Both the position numbers and the translations under genes were made by a program. This document shows, one piece after another, positions 27,777 to 32,752 of a DNA stretch of 48,022 nucleotides (the stretch's first letter is position 1; each line of letters starts with the position of its first letter). The DNA comes from Patescibacteria group bacterium (GTDB lineage: Bacteria; Patescibacteriota; Microgenomatia; UBA12405): assembly GCA_050943115.1 (NCBI GenBank), contig JBMNON010000001.1:1-48022 (forward strand), given 5' to 3'. The notes beneath the pieces were generated by a model. The model saw nothing but the letters and a program-made list of their open reading frames with translations, did not search any database and was not told where the DNA came from.

Positions 27777-28694
27777 TTAAACTCCGGCTGCTTTAATAGC
27801 CCTACCCACTTCTTCCACAATCAGATTGACACTCTTAACACTGTCGTCATTTGCAGGTATTGGGTAATCCACCTTCTCCGGATTACTATCGGTATCGACC
27901 AATGCCACCACCTTTATGCCCCGCAAGCGAGCCTCCCTAACGGCTGTTTTTTCAAATCCGGCGTCAACAACAAACAGAATATCAAACATTTTGTCCAAAT
28001 TAACCAAACCGCCGACATTCCTTTCCAGCCTCCCGATTTCTTTCTTGGTGTCGGACAATTCCTTTTTAGTCAAATCGGAAAAAGTACCGGCCTCAATACC
28101 CTGCTTTAAATCTTTCAATCTTTTAATATTTTTTCTAATCTCTTCCCAATTGGTAATAGTCCCACCCAACCATCTGTCGGTAACATACGCTACCTGGGCA
28201 TCTTCGGCCACTCTCTTTACCACTTCCCGGGCTTGTCTTTTGGTGCCTACCATTAAAACCTGCTTACCGTTTCTTTTGGCATTATATATATAGTTGCAGG
28301 CTTTTTCCAATTCATTTATGGAATTGGTTAAATCCAATATTTCTACGCCATCCTTTGATGTATAGATATAATCTCTGGCTTTCGGATGAGTCTTGGCAAC
28401 TTTATGGCCCAAATGCGAACCGGCAGCAAGCATGTCTTTCATATCAATCGTCAGGTCATACTTTTTATCCGGCTTCTGTTGTACTTCAACTGCCCCAATT
28501 TCCTCAACTGATGTTTTTTCGCTGATTTCCTTTTTAGCTCTTTCCTTTTTAGCTTTTACCTCTTCATTAAGCTTCTTCACTTGCTCGGTATTTACCCTGG
28601 ACTGTTTCTTAGAATTAACTACTAAAGCTTTCTTTACCAAACTTTTACCGGTTCGGTTGACGGTTTTATTTATTGTTTTCTTTTTTTCTTCCAT
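27777..28694 (-). CDS. rpsB: 30S ribosomal protein S2 with N-terminal extension
   Basis: AGSHLGH, VGTKRQA, RWLGGTITN, DTDSNP, PANDD. Confidence 0.96.
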   Translation of the reverse strand: MEEKKKTINKTVNRTGKSLVKKALVVNSKKQSRVNTEQVKKLNEEVKAKKERAKKEISEKTSVEEIGAVEVQQKPDKKYDLTIDMKDMLAAGSHLGHKVAKTHPKARDYIYTSKDGVEILDLTNSINELEKACNYIYNAKRNGKQVLMVGTKRQAREVVKRVAEDAQVAYVTDRWLGGTITNWEEIRKNIKRLKDLKQGIEAGTFSDLTKKELSDTKKEIGRLERNVGGLVNLDKMFDILFVVDAGFEKTAVREARLRGIKVVALVDTDSNPEKVDYPIPANDDSVKSVNLIVEEVGRAIKAAGV

Positions 28695-28714
28695 TTTATT
28701 GTCCTTATTAAATT

Positions 28715-28748
28715 GTAAGTAGGCGGGGTTACGAAACCCAGGACTTAC
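28715..28748 (-). promoter_or_regulatory. Candidate rpsB leader hairpin
   Basis: Minus RNA GUAAGU-CCU-GGGUU-UCGU-AACCC-CGCCU-ACUUAC, 20 nt upstream of the rpsB start. Confidence 0.55.
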
Positions 28749-28790
28749 GCCAAAATAAACTGATAAATTAGCTTTGAAATTATATCACAC

Positions 28791-29033
28791 TTAGTCCCTG
28801 GACCCTCTGCCGTTGTGTTTACTATCTTTCCTCTCAAACCGTGGTTGTATCTCTACCTCATACCGGGTATTGAGTAAGTTGGCAATCCCCGGCCCGGGTT
28901 CCACATAAGCAGTCCGCCCGTTTATCGTTACGATATGGCCCTGGTCAAAGGTTCCGTCAGGAAATAAACCCTTTGGTTTTGGTCTGTCTGAAAAATCTAT
29001 ACCGGTTAATGGTGCCTTCTCTTTAACTGTCAT
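28791..29033 (-). CDS. Small hypothetical protein
   Basis: 80-aa ORF with TTGACA-16nt-TAAGAT promoter ending 8 nt before the ATG. Confidence 0.6.
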   Translation of the reverse strand: MTVKEKAPLTGIDFSDRPKPKGLFPDGTFDQGHIVTINGRTAYVEPGPGIANLLNTRYEVEIQPRFERKDSKHNGRGSRD

Positions 29034-29079
29034 CTATAAAAATCTTAATTTTTATTTTTTAGTTGTCAATTAATTAAAA

Positions 29080-29550
29080 AACAACCCAGGAAAAAAGAGA
29101 AAATATGAAAATACTAATGCCTTCTTCCAAAGAGGCGCTGTTCGCTGCTGCTCCCAGCGCCCCTTCTTGCTGTCAGTTCTGCGATGCCCGGTAGTCGGCA
29201 CCCGGATCGTCTGGAAGAGCCACCTTCCCGGTTTCCTCGTCCACCCGACGGGTCTCAATGCTGCCACAAAACGAAACATACTTGGGCCCAAGGCACCTGG
29301 ACATCTTCTCCGGAGTCGGTGTGCAACACCCTACAAGCTTATAGTGGCATTCGTTGCAATGGCAAGGCTGAACACACATCGTATTCCTCCATGGGGGGGT
29401 GAGAGTAAAAGTTCTACCTGAAGCGATGGCCGGACATGACTGCCCCTATGGTGGTAGCATGGCAATAATTCTCCTTTCAAATTAGGGTCACAACAAACCA
29501 ATAACATTGATCTCTTGTGACCCTAATTGTTCCTGGGTTGTTAATGTGCT
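29080..29550 (-). other. Structured RNA cassette A (boxA-like motif plus terminal stem enclosing a small mRNA)
   Basis: 13-bp IR 29080-29092/29530-29542; 14-bp hairpin 29480-29493/29515-29528; 11-bp hairpin 29130-29140/29155-29165; AGCACATTAACAAC at the 5' end. Confidence 0.7.
29173..29379 (-). CDS. Small Cys-rich protein (68 aa, 8 Cys; CxxCxY...CxGP)
   Basis: GGAGG SD (29386-29390) 6 nt before ATG; motif shared with the cassette B peptide. Confidence 0.65.
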   Translation of the reverse strand: MCVQPCHCNECHYKLVGCCTPTPEKMSRCLGPKYVSFCGSIETRRVDEETGKVALPDDPGADYRASQN

Positions 29551-29650
29551 CTTACCAAAGACTTAAAAACTAGCATTTTAGTTTTGTCTTATAGCAAGTT
29601 TTTATTTCTATTAAAAACTAGCTTCAAATTACTAAAACTACTTTTTAATA

Positions 29651-30112
29651 GACAACCCGAAAGAAAAAAGAATAGAAAAGAAAGTGTAAAGCGCGAAACA
29701 AAGACGAATATTGCTTAATAAGCAACGGGCAGGGAGCCGCAAACGGCACTGTTCTGGCCCCCTGCCATTTATGGTTATCTTCTAGGATCGCGGCCTTGGT
29801 CTTGGTCGTCCAGCCCGCCTCTTCGGAGTCTTCTCCGGCGACTTATCGCCCATTGGCTTTCCCCAACCGCTGACCCTTGATGAAAGGTCCTCTGCACTTC
29901 TTCTTGTCACAGTTCCCACGATAGATGCATGACTTGCACTTTCCCGGCATGGTATGGTTCCTTTCATGTCATGTGTCTTCACAGTTGACTGACATATGGC
30001 TCTGACCGATAGACACAAGCAATCGGATCACCTCCTTCCTATTTTGGGATACGAAGAAAACATAAATACTATATTCTCTTCGTATCCCAATCTTTCGGGT
30101 TGTCAAAGTGCT
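29651..30112 (-). other. Structured RNA cassette B (same architecture as cassette A)
   Basis: 14-bp IR 29651-29664/30091-30104; 14-bp hairpin 30044-30057/30077-30090; 11-bp hairpin 29728-29738/29756-29766; AGCACTTTGACAAC at the 5' end. Confidence 0.7.
29843..29950 (-). CDS. Small Cys-rich peptide (35 aa, MPGKCKSCIYRGNCDKKKCRGPFIKGQRLGKANGR), below the ORF-track cutoff
   Basis: Hand translation; GAAAGGA SD upstream; CxxCxY..GxC..CxGP shared with 29173-29379. Confidence 0.6.
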   Translation of the reverse strand: MPGKCKSCIYRGNCDKKKCRGPFIKGQRLGKANGR

Positions 30113-30173
30113 TTTTGAAGGCTTACAAAAAAATGCTGATATCTTTTGATATCCTTCAAAATATTATGGGATT

Positions 30174-30201
30174 ATTGTATCAACAATTATATAATTATCA
30201 A
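30174..30201 (-). promoter_or_regulatory. Sigma70-type promoter driving the cassettes
   Basis: TTGATA (30201-30196), 16 nt, TACAAT (30179-30174) with extended -10 TG. Confidence 0.6.
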
Positions 30202-30409
30202 GTGATTGTTTTATAGGATATTTACTCAATTCTAGCCGCAAAAAAACTTCTTTCCTACAGGAACACTTCGTCAAAAACCTTAACACTATAAGTCTTACTA
30301 GTTCCATATGCGATACTACACCAATATGTATCACTTTGCAATAAGTAAATGTATGCTTGTTAACCTACCTACTCCCCCATTTACAGCCATTTAATGTAAA
30401 ATATAGTCA

Positions 30410-32752
30410 ATGTCGCTTGAGATTAAAAATAACCTATCGATACTCCAAATTCGCTTACCGCAAGACAATGAATTTACCCTCGAAGCCATGTCCTCACTTC
30501 TTAGCAACTTCAGCCAGTCCGGTTCGGTTTCCCTTACCGACCGTCTCAAGGGCTACCGTAAAACTATAGCCAGTTTGGAAATTGTACTCATGGAAGGTCA
30601 AATCTATTTTTTTGTGGTCGCTCCCCAAGAAAGCATGGAATATGTCCGTTCCCAAATCTTAGCCCAGTACCCCACCGCCATCACCCGTGACACTGCTGAT
30701 TATTTTGCAAAAATCGACAATCTTAAAAGTTTAAACTTTGCCCAACTCGGCCTTGCAAAATCTTATAGCTACCCCGTAAAAACCGCCAGAGACTTTCGTG
30801 ACACTGACCCCTTGGTTTCTGTTCTGGCTCCCCTCTCCCGTTCCAACACCAAGGATGATTTCTTTATTTATCAAATAGTTTTGGGTCCTGCCCATAAAAA
30901 TTGGCAGGGACCAATAATGGATATAATTCAAAACGGCATTGTCATCGATAAAGAAAAAGGTCTGCGCCAAGCCCACCCCGACCGTTCTATCTTTGAACAA
31001 AAAATTCAGTTCCCAGGCATTTTGGCTCAGATTAATCTCGTTTCCAGCAACCCCAACCTGGTTGCTTCAGTTTCCTCATCTTACGGCGCTTTTACTTCTC
31101 CCCGTGGTAATTCGCTAAAAACCTTCCCCCCTGGCCTCTTTAATCGCTCCAAGCTCCCCGACTGTATCATCAATCGCAAGATCAGTACCAAGCTAAAAAC
31201 TCAGATCTTAAATACTGAAGAAGTATCAGCCCTCTGGCACTTCCCTAACAAGCTCACCAAACTTCCCAATATCGCTTGGGGTAAGAACCTTTTTTCCGAT
31301 CCTCCCGAAAACCTCCCTGTCGCCGACAACGCCACTGAAGAAGAAAAGAAAAATATCACCTTTTATGCCAAAACTGAGTTCAGAAACAAAGATTCCATTT
31401 TCGGCATCAAACAGGGCGAAGACCGCCGCCGCCACATGTACATTATCGGTAAATCAGGTACCGGTAAAACTACCCTCATTGCCAATATGGCCATTGACGA
31501 CATCAGAAAAGGCCGAGGCGTCGCCGTCATTGATCCTCACGGCGATCTTTGCAACAACATCCTAGATTACATCCCCAGCAACCGAGTCAATGACTGCTGC
31601 TACTTTAATCCCGCCGATCCGGAATATGTCTACCCCCTCAATGTTCTTGAAGCCCAAAACGACTCCCAAAAAGAACTGGTTGCCTCAGGCGTAATTTCCA
31701 TCTTCAAAAAAATTTACGGGGAAGTTTCCTGGGGCCCACGGCTTGAGCATATCTTAAGAAATGCCGTTCTCACCCTGGTCAATACCCCCAACACTACCCT
31801 GGTTGATATCGTCGAAATCCTAACCAACAAAAATTTCCGGGAAAAAGTTATTGCCCACCTGAATAACCAAACCTTGAAAAATTTCTGGATCAACGAATTC
31901 AATCGTATGGAACCAAGGTTCCAAAACGAAGCTGTCGCTCCTATTCTCAACAAGGTCGGCCAGTTTATTGCCTCCACCAATATCCGAAATACCATCGACC
32001 ATCCCAAATCAAAAATCAATATCCAACAAATAATGGATGAAAAGAAAATCTTAATTGCCGATCTTTCCACTGGAAAACTTGGGGAAGACAACTCTGCCCT
32101 TCTTGGTGCCATGTTGATCACCCAAATCCAGCTTTCTGCCATGAACCGTGTTTTCCAGGAAGCCGAAGCCCGCTCTGATTTCTATCTTTACGTTGATGAG
32201 TTCCAAAACTTTGCTACCACCTCCTTTATAAAAATTCTTTCAGAAGCCCGTAAATTCAAACTCAACCTGATTGTCGCCAACCAGTACATGGCCCAGCTTG
32301 AGCGCCCCATCCAAGATGCCATCTTTGGCAATGTCGGTTCTATCGCTTCATTTGTCGTTGGCAATCAGGATGCTTTCATTTTAAGCAAAGAATTTGGTCC
32401 TCAATTCCCCCCTGAAGACCTCGTTAAAATTGGTCGCTATCAAGTAATTAATAAGCTATCTATAGACTCTGAAACCACTAACCCCTTTTACGCCTACACC
32501 CTACCTCCTCTGTCCTGTAAAAACCAGGGCCGTGACAAACTGATCAAAACCTCTCGAGAGCGCTGGGGTAAAACAAAGGATAATTTTAAAAAAAACCCCT
32601 CTCAGCCCCAACCCACGCAAAAGTCCCAAGAATCCCAGTCAAATCCAACCCCTCCCAAAAAAAACCCTCAGGTCAAAACTGTAATTAATCCGGAAAAAGA
32701 GAAAACCACTCCTCCCCCAACCGCAACCAGTCGTCGTACTTCTATAGAATAG
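30410..32752 (+). CDS. VirD4/TraG/VirB4-like P-loop ATPase (type IV secretion coupling-protein-like)
   Basis: DRRRHMYIIGKSGTGKT, VIDPHGD, LYVDEFQNF, SEARKF, ANQY, GNVG. Confidence 0.85.
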   Translation: MSLEIKNNLSILQIRLPQDNEFTLEAMSSLLSNFSQSGSVSLTDRLKGYRKTIASLEIVLMEGQIYFFVVAPQESMEYVRSQILAQYPTAITRDTADYFAKIDNLKSLNFAQLGLAKSYSYPVKTARDFRDTDPLVSVLAPLSRSNTKDDFFIYQIVLGPAHKNWQGPIMDIIQNGIVIDKEKGLRQAHPDRSIFEQKIQFPGILAQINLVSSNPNLVASVSSSYGAFTSPRGNSLKTFPPGLFNRSKLPDCIINRKISTKLKTQILNTEEVSALWHFPNKLTKLPNIAWGKNLFSDPPENLPVADNATEEEKKNITFYAKTEFRNKDSIFGIKQGEDRRRHMYIIGKSGTGKTTLIANMAIDDIRKGRGVAVIDPHGDLCNNILDYIPSNRVNDCCYFNPADPEYVYPLNVLEAQNDSQKELVASGVISIFKKIYGEVSWGPRLEHILRNAVLTLVNTPNTTLVDIVEILTNKNFREKVIAHLNNQTLKNFWINEFNRMEPRFQNEAVAPILNKVGQFIASTNIRNTIDHPKSKINIQQIMDEKKILIADLSTGKLGEDNSALLGAMLITQIQLSAMNRVFQEAEARSDFYLYVDEFQNFATTSFIKILSEARKFKLNLIVANQYMAQLERPIQDAIFGNVGSIASFVVGNQDAFILSKEFGPQFPPEDLVKIGRYQVINKLSIDSETTNPFYAYTLPPLSCKNQGRDKLIKTSRERWGKTKDNFKKNPSQPQPTQKSQESQSNPTPPKKNPQVKTVINPEKEKTTPPPTATSRRTSIE

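Follow-up and report, generated by a model that had tools for sequence, protein, structure and literature searches.

Two tandem minus-strand RNA units lie at positions 29080–30201 of a 48,022-nt stretch of Patescibacteria DNA (GenBank assembly GCA_050943115.1, contig JBMNON010000001.1); that whole stretch is called the window below. The genome of the window, G000, comprises 1.05 Mb in 52 contigs (completeness 97%, contamination estimate 2.3%, mean GC content 0.41), with the window on contig C43. The units occupy a 1.37-kb gap bordered by a divergent gene for a 780-residue protein (30410–32752, plus strand) and by an 80-residue open reading frame (ORF) followed by rpsB-tsf-frr (minus strand). 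Unit A spans 30104–29651 (454 nt) and unit B 29542–29080 (463 nt), and every unit element given below is on the minus strand. Both follow one order: a hairpin, a boxA-like motif, the 5′ arm of a closing stem (P1), an inner hairpin (P2), a Shine–Dalgarno (SD) sequence with an upstream ORF (uORF), one or two small ORFs, a GC hairpin, a pyrimidine tract, and the 3′ arm of P1. An initial annotation, made from sequence alone, had described two units of about 460 nt sharing eight ordered elements, and all of these lie where it placed them. Aligned to each other, the units show about 70% column identity, chiefly in their 5′ and 3′ modules. Their interiors are more GC-rich than the spacer and flanks (0.52–0.65 vs. 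0.22–0.33), as had also been noticed. We are highly confident that the units constitute a real, conserved RNA architecture.

Upstream of unit A, a promoter scan found the promoter-like site TTGATA-16-TACAAT, its −10 extended by TG (30174–30201, minus strand), which recurs with the same spacing and hexamers in G001 and G002, two genomes of the same genus. The scan returned no site between units A and B, in keeping with the early claim of one upstream promoter, and this single site (30201–30174) probably drives both. Unit A proper is preceded by a hairpin in the boxB position (30113–30161; 18-nt arms at 30113–30130 and 30144–30161, 83% complementary; near-identical in G001 and G002) and by the boxA-like element GCACTTTGACAA (30100–30111), which agrees with the organism's own 16S-leader boxA, GTACTTTGACAA, at 11 of 12 positions. 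The P1 5′ arm (30091–30104) pairs over 14 of 14 bp with the 3′ arm (29651–29664), and P2 (30044–30090), whose 21-nt arms are 90% complementary, abuts the 5′ arm and also appears in the minimum free energy fold. Next come the first SD, SD1 (AAGGAGGTGATCC, 30025–30037), and a 17-codon uORF with a TTG start (29969–30022), read from the sequence, whose peptide is not conserved (four codons in G002). SD1 of unit A is a 13-nt perfect complement of the organism's own 16S 3′ end (GGATCACCTCCTT), much longer than SDs usually are. Unit A of G002 and another cassette of the window's genome (C43:71262) have a related word, AGGTGATGC, after P2 and, in both, in front of a tiny uORF. The enclosed ORFs, which we call cargo, are A1 (29843–29950; 35 residues, basic, four conserved cysteines; taken from the ORF list, with an ortholog in G002) and A2 (29782–29853; 23 residues, Arg/Pro-rich, with a GRP motif), whose start overlaps the A1 stop inside ATGGGCGATAA. 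Behind them lie an 11-bp GC hairpin with one G-U pair (29728–29766), read from the sequence and kept in G001 and G002 even with differing cargo, and a pyrimidine-rich tract (29665–29705) that sequence and fold predict to be the partner of SD1 in a pairing termed P3.

Unit B repeats this arrangement with its own sequences: an upstream hairpin in the boxB position (29559–29609; 16-nt arms at 29559–29574 and 29594–29609, 81% complementary), the boxA-like element GCACATTAACAA (29538–29549), recognized in the sequence, and a P1 5′ arm (29527–29542) that pairs at 94% over 16 nt, 13 of them perfectly. The perfect 13–14-bp pairing of unit ends reported at the outset is thus present in both units. Its inner hairpin P2 (29480–29528) has 23-nt arms that are 87% complementary; this hairpin had been located correctly, immediately inside the closing stem, and its length, given as 14 bp, is corrected to arms of 21 nt in A and 23 nt in B. 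SD1 GAAAGGAG and the four-codon uORF ATG CTA CCA CCA TAG occupy 29446–29478 (the G002 counterpart is ATG CCA CCG TAG). The cargo ORF B1 (29173–29379), from the ORF list and with an ortholog in G001, encodes 68 residues with a Cys-rich N-terminal half and an acidic tail. A 10-bp GC hairpin with one G-U pair (29131–29164), read from the sequence and kept in G001 and G002, precedes the P1 3′ arm (29080–29095), which was located by a repeat finder and by sequence and runs into TTTTTT. The extended motif reads GCACTTTGACAACCC at 30111–30097 in A and GCACATTAACAACCC at 29549–29535 in B.

When the downstream sequence was shuffled 100 times and stem strength compared, the window's P1 stems were equalled by 0/100 (A) and 1/100 (B) shuffles, and at 14 of 17 boxA sites by at most 1/100. 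Three sites fell short of this: G067 lacks a stem within 6 kb, at G091 the contig ends, and the stem of L053 was equalled by 4/100 shuffles (L-numbers denote fetched loci). P1 pairs form with a probability near 1 in the ensembles of both units. Minimum free energies relative to dinucleotide shuffles gave z scores of −9.1 (sense) and −5.1 (antisense) for unit A and of −4.7 and −4.1 for unit B. An alignment of nine units of the ACAACCC type shows covariation in P1, the stems varying yet still pairing as first claimed: all but two of the 108 cells (106) are paired, double-sided changes occur at 5 of the 12 pairs, none of 500 column shuffles equals the score, and slid registers leave 42–61 paired cells. 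Examples of such changes are GAAAGA/TCTTTC vs. GGAAGA/TCTTCC and AGGAA/TTCCT vs. GGGAG/CTCCC or GGGGA/TTCCC, the last with one G-U. Wobbles within P1 number five G-U against zero A-C on the sense strand, as expected for an RNA of the minus strand and in agreement with the earlier remark that the G-U pairs fit that strand only.

The strand asymmetry of the wobbles bears on a reading at the DNA level, in which a small cargo-carrying mobile element, resembling a miniature inverted-repeat transposable element (MITE) or an integron cassette, would have the arms as its terminal inverted repeats. We consider this very improbable. Such an element could account for the GC-rich interiors, for cargo that differs between close relatives within conserved wrappers (unit A of G001, unit B of G002), and for a relative's RNA contig that shares the 3′ module but not the cargo. 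It fits poorly, however, with arms that are unrelated in sequence between genomes and different in every copy, also within one genome, where the motif occurs only twice. A check for MITE or insertion-sequence ends, proposed with the initial annotation, found no target-site duplication at the unit borders; the 11 neighbouring ORFs scanned include no integrase or transposase, searches of phage and plasmid collections in distant mode gave no match, and the locus is syntenic across genera beside the same ATPase gene.

The motif ahead of P1 connects the units to the organism's rRNA leaders. Exact matches to the pattern GCACWTTRACAACCC in the 1.05-Mb genome are confined to units A and B; at two mismatches the pattern yields four matches, the same number as the control. 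Other boxA-like words (C17:265, C6:23059, C43:113850, C2:2057, and C32:17183) were set aside, lying in or against coding regions with no convincing closure. The organism's own 16S leader runs from a hairpin, CTAACCGAAGGTTAG, to AAAAGTACTTTGACAATCG and then to an arm of about 40 nt of the processing stem: its boxA GTACTTTGACAA stands 2 nt ahead of this 5′ arm, and the 3′ partner lies behind the 16S gene. The 16S leader of G002 has the same layout. The 23S leader likewise presents a hairpin, TGCTCTTTAACAATTT, and a 5′ arm whose partner lies behind the 23S gene, with a boxA, GCTCTTTAACAA, that is a variant differing from the 16S word GTACTTTGACAA. The rRNA-operon likeness originally proposed therefore holds against the genome's own leaders, hairpin–boxA–5′ arm being the order in both. 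The rRNA genes themselves are unlinked (contigs C12 and C10), the 16S gene standing alone before a terminator and an uppS-like gene and the 23S–5S pair behind a transfer RNA (tRNA) gene.

Placement and wording of the motif are equally constrained. The boxA lies about 55–65 nt downstream of the predicted −10, its first 7–8 nt fall outside P1, and P1 begins at the G/A preceding the ACAACCC of the motif. Within the genome, exact ACTTTGACAA in leader context occurs only in the 16S leader and unit A. Measured against the gamma-proteobacterial consensus GYTCTTTAANA (PMC5725501), unit A, unit B, and the organism's own 16S boxA each agree at 9 of 11 positions, and the 23S leader and the sister cassettes with GTTCTTTAACAA at 11 of 11. 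Three other cassettes of the same genome and the relatives' cassettes carry GTTCTTTAACAA or GTTCTTTGACAA, the former being identical to that consensus. Because the cassette motifs fall within the range of the organism's own rrn-leader variants and keep the order hairpin–boxA–5′ arm, we take them as boxA; the sequence comparisons support the view that the motif behaves as this organism's boxA, to which NusB/NusE (S10) would bind. The genome encodes NusB (C11:39095–39340), RNase III, and, on C10, Rho. The nusB and rnc genes are adjacent on the same strand (C11:38617–39340, minus), their Pfam domain matches 89 nt apart.

Within this frame, the interiors code for protein, as the initial annotation had held in calling them small messenger RNAs (mRNAs). 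Between the window and G002, A1 keeps its frame through an in-frame insertion and retains its four cysteines (7 synonymous and 13 non-synonymous codon changes), and A2 shows 8 synonymous and 3 non-synonymous changes, with 4, 2, and 10 differences at the three codon positions. B1 and its G001 ortholog share 44% identity, with 21 synonymous and 38 non-synonymous changes and 27, 29, and 46 differences by codon position. Third-position bias, frame keeping, and conserved cysteines together support the coding assignment. Cargo also turns over fast: in the same wrapper, unit A of G001 holds a different basic peptide and a CxxC...CxxC mini-protein, and unit B of G002 lacks the Cys-rich half. Other cassettes encode mini-proteins rich in Cys, peptides rich in Lys/Arg, small membrane peptides, lipoproteins, and secreted proteins with at most about 280 residues. 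The window's cargo ORFs matched no Pfam family. A word-index protein search with the 68-residue B1 returned nothing, B1 itself being absent from that index, and phmmer against 1.84 billion representatives returned two matches, one of them the G001 ortholog. The other, a 1234-residue repeat protein without the cysteine pattern, was judged spurious, and an AlphaFold2 model of B1 built from a two-row alignment (mean predicted local distance difference test score 46.4) was not usable.

These coding signatures are what a purely structural explanation has difficulty with. If the units were structured non-coding RNAs with incidental ORFs, the very low folding energies (z −9.1 and −4.7), the GC-rich islands in an AT-rich genome, the rRNA-like flanks, and the omission of these ORFs by gene callers, which extends to the absence of B1 from the protein index, would be in order. 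The third-position bias, frame-preserving indels, and conserved cysteines would not, nor would the clear signal-peptide, lipobox, and transmembrane proteins that sister cassettes hold behind good SDs; we give this explanation very little credence.

At least four further cassettes with boxA and closing stem lie on C43 outside the window, making at least six in this genome; additional copies and homologues had been looked for on the suggestion of the initial annotation, and others were found across family f1. The four encode a secreted Pro/Thr-rich protein (C43:53716, minus strand), a lipoprotein (C43:68176, plus), a signal-peptide protein (C43:~71262, plus), and a 39-residue hydrophobic peptide (C43:76064, plus). 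In the three that were measured, interior GC is 0.49–0.61 against 0.37–0.46 in the flanks; the interior of the cassette near C43:71262 overlaps a GC-rich island.

The lipoprotein cassette is followed by a candidate type III hammerhead, 2 nt behind its P1 3′ arm (C43:68971–69025; L087:16972–17026). It scores 42.5 bits against RF00008 (local E 1.5e-7; gathering score 48.5) and has a complete core (GUC, CUGAUGAG, CGAAAC), three stems, and an intrinsic terminator next to it. In G013 a hammerhead candidate comes directly after P1 (L113:2596–2649; 40.3 bits, below the gathering score of 48.5), and a third candidate, read by eye only, follows the cassette of G007 (L112). None of these three lies in the window, and one lies elsewhere in the same genome. 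An Rfam scan of 10 relatives' loci gave no match at E 0.01. With the candidate hammerheads at or within 2 nt of the end of P1, and TTTTTT behind the P1 of unit B, the 3′ end of the RNA would fall at the base of P1 in these cases. A hammerhead-like site at C12 ~79508–79560, a candidate by sequence (GUC, CUGAUGAG, CGAAAC, three short stems), ends a GC-rich operon that lacks boxA and encodes a small membrane protein and a Cys-rich protein.

Ends defined in this way allow another account. P1 might chiefly be a long-range terminator or stabilizer of ordinary small-gene mRNAs, with ends set by P1 together with a U-run or hammerhead, the stem guarding against exonucleases, the boxA-like word being only a conserved leader element, and Nus factors and RNase III playing no special part. 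U-runs behind the 3′ arm in unit B and many relatives, hammerheads there in two or three cassettes, and a P1 that is short for an RNase III substrate all suit it, and in one run the cassette contigs have depths of 31 and 7.6–21.6 against 2.7 for rpsB, a weak point, as contig depth is no expression measure. The motif is nonetheless too specific for a generic leader element: ACTTTGACAA recurs exactly in leader context at the 16S leader and nowhere else besides unit A, the sister cassettes reproduce the published consensus (PMC5725501) without a mismatch, and in standing immediately ahead of the 5′ arm the motif follows the rrn leaders. We regard this account as unlikely, though it deserves to be kept in view.

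The ends of the units may also act on translation. SD1 is predicted to be paired with a probability of 0.85 in unit A (0.70 with the last 70 nt) and 0.94 in unit B (0.91 with the last 70 nt). Across five units, pairing of SD1 with the last 70 nt ranges from 0.46 to 0.91, and in-silico removal of these 70 nt lowers it. This behaviour speaks for a reading as type I toxin-like mRNAs of the hok or aapA1 kind, which the initial annotation had named as its alternative: the full-length RNA would be inert through 5′–3′ pairing over the SD, activated by 3′ trimming, and controlled by an antisense RNA. Masking of the SD by 5′–3′ pairing is borne out in silico, the uORF-plus-ORF layout is similar, the mechanism would be the one described for aapA1 (PMC5416894), and the sister cassette at C43:76064 encodes a hydrophobic peptide of 39 residues. 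Other observations speak against that alternative. A1, A2, and B1 are basic or Cys-rich with no hydrophobic helix, other cassettes carry lipoproteins and secreted proteins of 100–280 residues, boxA is no feature of type I systems, and no antisense gene was seen: the promoter scan gave no opposite-strand (plus) site inside the units, the RNA contigs being strandless. We think a toxin system improbable on these grounds.

The arrangement as a whole recurs across a Shapirobacteria-like family. Among 61 relatives searched by BLAST with the unit pair, only G001 and G002 returned strong matches; both have the tandem pair at the same place and keep its promoter, hairpin, boxA, P2, GC hairpin, and tract, and the part of P1 that varies has changed on both sides. 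Of the order's 132 genomes, 8 matched the pattern GYACWTTRACAACCC, every one of them a member of family f1 (control, one match), and a class-wide pattern search of 401 genomes gave outside f1 a single match against about seven control matches, that is, chance. A second survey with the pattern GTTCTTTRACAA found 29 sites in 25 genomes: 10 were strictly closed, all in f1, three more were nearly closed, and none of the five sites in other families was closed.

Relatives of the neighbouring ATPase supplied a further sample (40 records, titled Shapirobacteria, Woesebacteria, and other Patescibacteria). Upstream of the ATPase gene in close relatives stand the boxA variants GTTCTTTAACAA, GTTCTTTAAAAA, GTTCATTAACAA, and GCACGTTAACAA with an arm directly after, the complement of which lies 578–981 nt downstream; these arms are unrelated in sequence to the window's. 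The cassette is thus found divergently upstream of the TrwB/VirD4-like ATPase gene in several genera of the family, and the distant ATPase relatives (≤49% identity, L056–L079) showed no boxA plus stem upstream. A functional link between cassette and ATPase was considered and dropped because the window's genome has four further cassettes at other places.

Several sequencing runs contain the locus. DNA runs hold the whole stretch, and six metatranscriptome runs hold part of it, four of which, from four studies, were placed as assembled contigs. RNA contigs cover the interior of unit A (29665–30035) in all four and that of unit B (29258–29473) in two; rpsB appears in the RNA contigs of one run only. 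No RNA contig of the four runs falls on 30094–30700 or 28631–29246, which is no proof of silence, as contigs can miss low-depth RNA. The upper contig ends lie just 3′ of P2, at 30024, 30025, 30033, and 30035 in unit A and at 29473 and 29459 in unit B, a weak hint of RNA ends or processing. Because contigs give neither strand nor true ends, we take from them presence in RNA libraries and that weak hint about ends. An RNA contig of a related strain (29665–29769) differs at 6 of 105 nt in the 3′ module of unit A and then passes into unrelated sequence, ending at 29665, 1 nt before the P1 3′ arm; it suggests that cargo differs between strains inside the same wrapper.

Among the surroundings, the 780-residue gene (30410–32752, plus) encodes a TrwB/VirD4-like ATPase (TrwB_AAD_bind, DUF87, TraG-D_C) that is conserved across Patescibacteria (40 loci); its neighbours here are the core genes topA, dprA, PBP2, and mreB. 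The 80-residue ORF downstream of the cassettes (28791–29033, minus) has conserved counterparts in G001 and G002 and a C terminus reading HNGRGS(R/L)D; it lies behind a promoter-like site of its own (29069–29042) and matched no Pfam family. Four short contigs of the assembly (C20, C23, C34, and C35) have a GC content of 0.55–0.68 over most of their length and may be contamination or foreign DNA.

Overall, the observation made in the initial annotation is confirmed and its interpretation is supported in part. We lean, with moderate confidence, towards reading each unit as an mRNA built on a pre-rRNA plan, its leader tethered by Nus factors, closed on its trailer, and matured like pre-rRNA; our confidence that Nus factors and RNase III take part in the mechanism is likewise moderate. 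A Nus complex assembled at boxA would make RNA polymerase Rho-resistant over a long, structured, and poorly translated leader, and would tether the 5′ arm of P1 to the polymerase so that P1 closes once the 3′ strand emerges, 450–900 nt later. The closed RNA would be compact, its 3′ end set at the P1 base by the U-run in unit B or by a hammerhead in sister cassettes. In this genus, pairing of SD1 to the 3′ pyrimidine tract would leave the finished RNA translationally masked and protected, and cuts by nucleases such as RNase III, in P2 or in P1 stacked with P3, would part the tandem units from each other and lift the masking. The proposal draws on the tethering model put forward for 16S rRNA, with boxA, Nus factors, and the 16S stem (PMC4807359), and on the leader–trailer helix of 16S rRNA (PMC10250234). 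A circularisable RNA, also entertained in the initial annotation, is not favoured, because the 97%-complete genome yielded no RtcB; no ribozyme was seen on the 5′ side either.

Several findings weigh against maturation on a pre-rRNA plan. In E. coli, 16S leader–trailer helices need more than 17 bp as a critical length and typically have 25–40 bp (PMC10250234); P1, at 13–14 bp, falls below both figures and is by itself short as an RNase III substrate. The window's boxA variants depart at 2 of 11 positions from the gamma-proteobacterial consensus (PMC5725501), as does the organism's own 16S boxA. In G067 a boxA leader stands without any closing stem inside 6 kb, so a boxA need not come with closure. 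The 3′ spacers of L048 and L051 are A/C-rich, so pairing of SD1 with a 3′ tract is not general. The contig starts just 3′ of P2 could reflect poor reverse transcription of stems, and the RNA evidence consists of assembled contigs without strand or true ends, from which co-transcription of A and B is not readable.

A wider interpretation can be offered only tentatively, and we consider it more doubtful than the mechanism above. A Patescibacteria lineage might possess a second pre-rRNA-style maturation pathway for fast-evolving genes of small, secreted, and membrane proteins, in which mRNAs are kept in store as closed, translation-masked, nuclease-resistant capsules until RNase III or an enzyme like it opens them, with the long-range helix serving as terminator or processing platform. 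The wrapper would be modular, with cargo swapped by recombination in the conserved flanks.

boxA and the Nus factors have long been regarded as dedicated to rRNA and phage lambda, and few targets beyond these are known; leader–trailer helices are known as an rRNA feature. What is new here is the full rrn design—hairpin, boxA, leader–trailer helix, and tandem layout—around protein-coding genes, in at least six copies in one 1-Mb genome, with recurrence across the family and, in some copies, a candidate hammerhead at the 3′ edge of the helix. If the proposal is true, the antitermination complex would act as chaperone and tether for mRNAs as well, bacterial hammerheads would gain a concrete job in defining the 3′ end of a closed mRNA, and attention would be drawn to small proteins of a class (Cys-rich, basic, or envelope-exposed) that gene callers miss in uncultured episymbiont-like bacteria.

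Set against known systems, the elements are familiar singly: boxA, leader–trailer helix, 5′–3′ masking, and hammerhead are each known, and their combination around mRNAs was not found in Rfam or in the literature searched. A gathering-score scan of the whole window with Rfam 15 returned tRNAs only, and an E-value scan of 28700–30500 gave 14 matches, the best at 23.6 bits, to microRNA and small nucleolar RNA models far below their cut-offs; the Rfam scan proposed with the initial annotation thus assigned the units to no family. The literature searched, on boxA/Nus antitermination, CRISPR-array boxA, Patescibacteria leaders, and type I toxin mRNAs, held no boxA plus leader–trailer design around mRNAs. 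A boxA reportedly also stands upstream of CRISPR arrays.

Type I toxin mRNAs (hok; aapA1/IsoA1, PMC5416894) share closed ends, a hidden SD, high predicted stability, and a uORF-like layout with the cassettes, and the SD1 masked in silico resembles the inert full-length aapA1 mRNA described there; the cassettes differ in having boxA, no antisense partner seen, window cargo that is not hydrophobic, and lipoprotein and secreted cargo elsewhere. Type III hammerheads of bacterial genomes (RF00008) have the full core and three stems found in the sister cassettes of G000 and G013. Those of the cassettes differ in their fixed place directly after the closing stem and before a terminator; we did not find this position described, no literature search having been aimed at hammerheads. 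boxA-dependent Nus regulation of non-rRNA genes, namely the suhB 5′ untranslated region and other predicted targets (PMC5725501), offers a boxA in a non-rRNA leader and a proposed protection of poorly translated RNA from Rho. In suhB the boxA lies less than 50 nt from the start codon and represses, whereas in the cassettes it precedes the SD by 90–130 nt and is joined directly to a long-range stem; the suhB-type cases lack leader–trailer closure.

The rrn leaders and spacers, with their boxB-boxA(-boxC) antitermination site ahead of the RNase III processing helix, differ from the cassettes in what is enclosed, which here is protein-coding RNA of 290–1100 nt with SDs and uORFs and no rRNA, and in helix length, 25–40 bp (PMC10250234) against 12–19 bp in the cassettes; because they enclose ORFs, the cassettes are not members of the rrn leader–trailer family. 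With rrn leaders they share a hairpin and a boxA followed at once by the 5′ strand of a helix that closes behind the enclosed RNA, a tandem layout in which each unit has its own boxA as ahead of 16S and 23S, and the boxA word of the organism's own rrn leaders, in a genome that encodes NusB, RNase III, and Rho.

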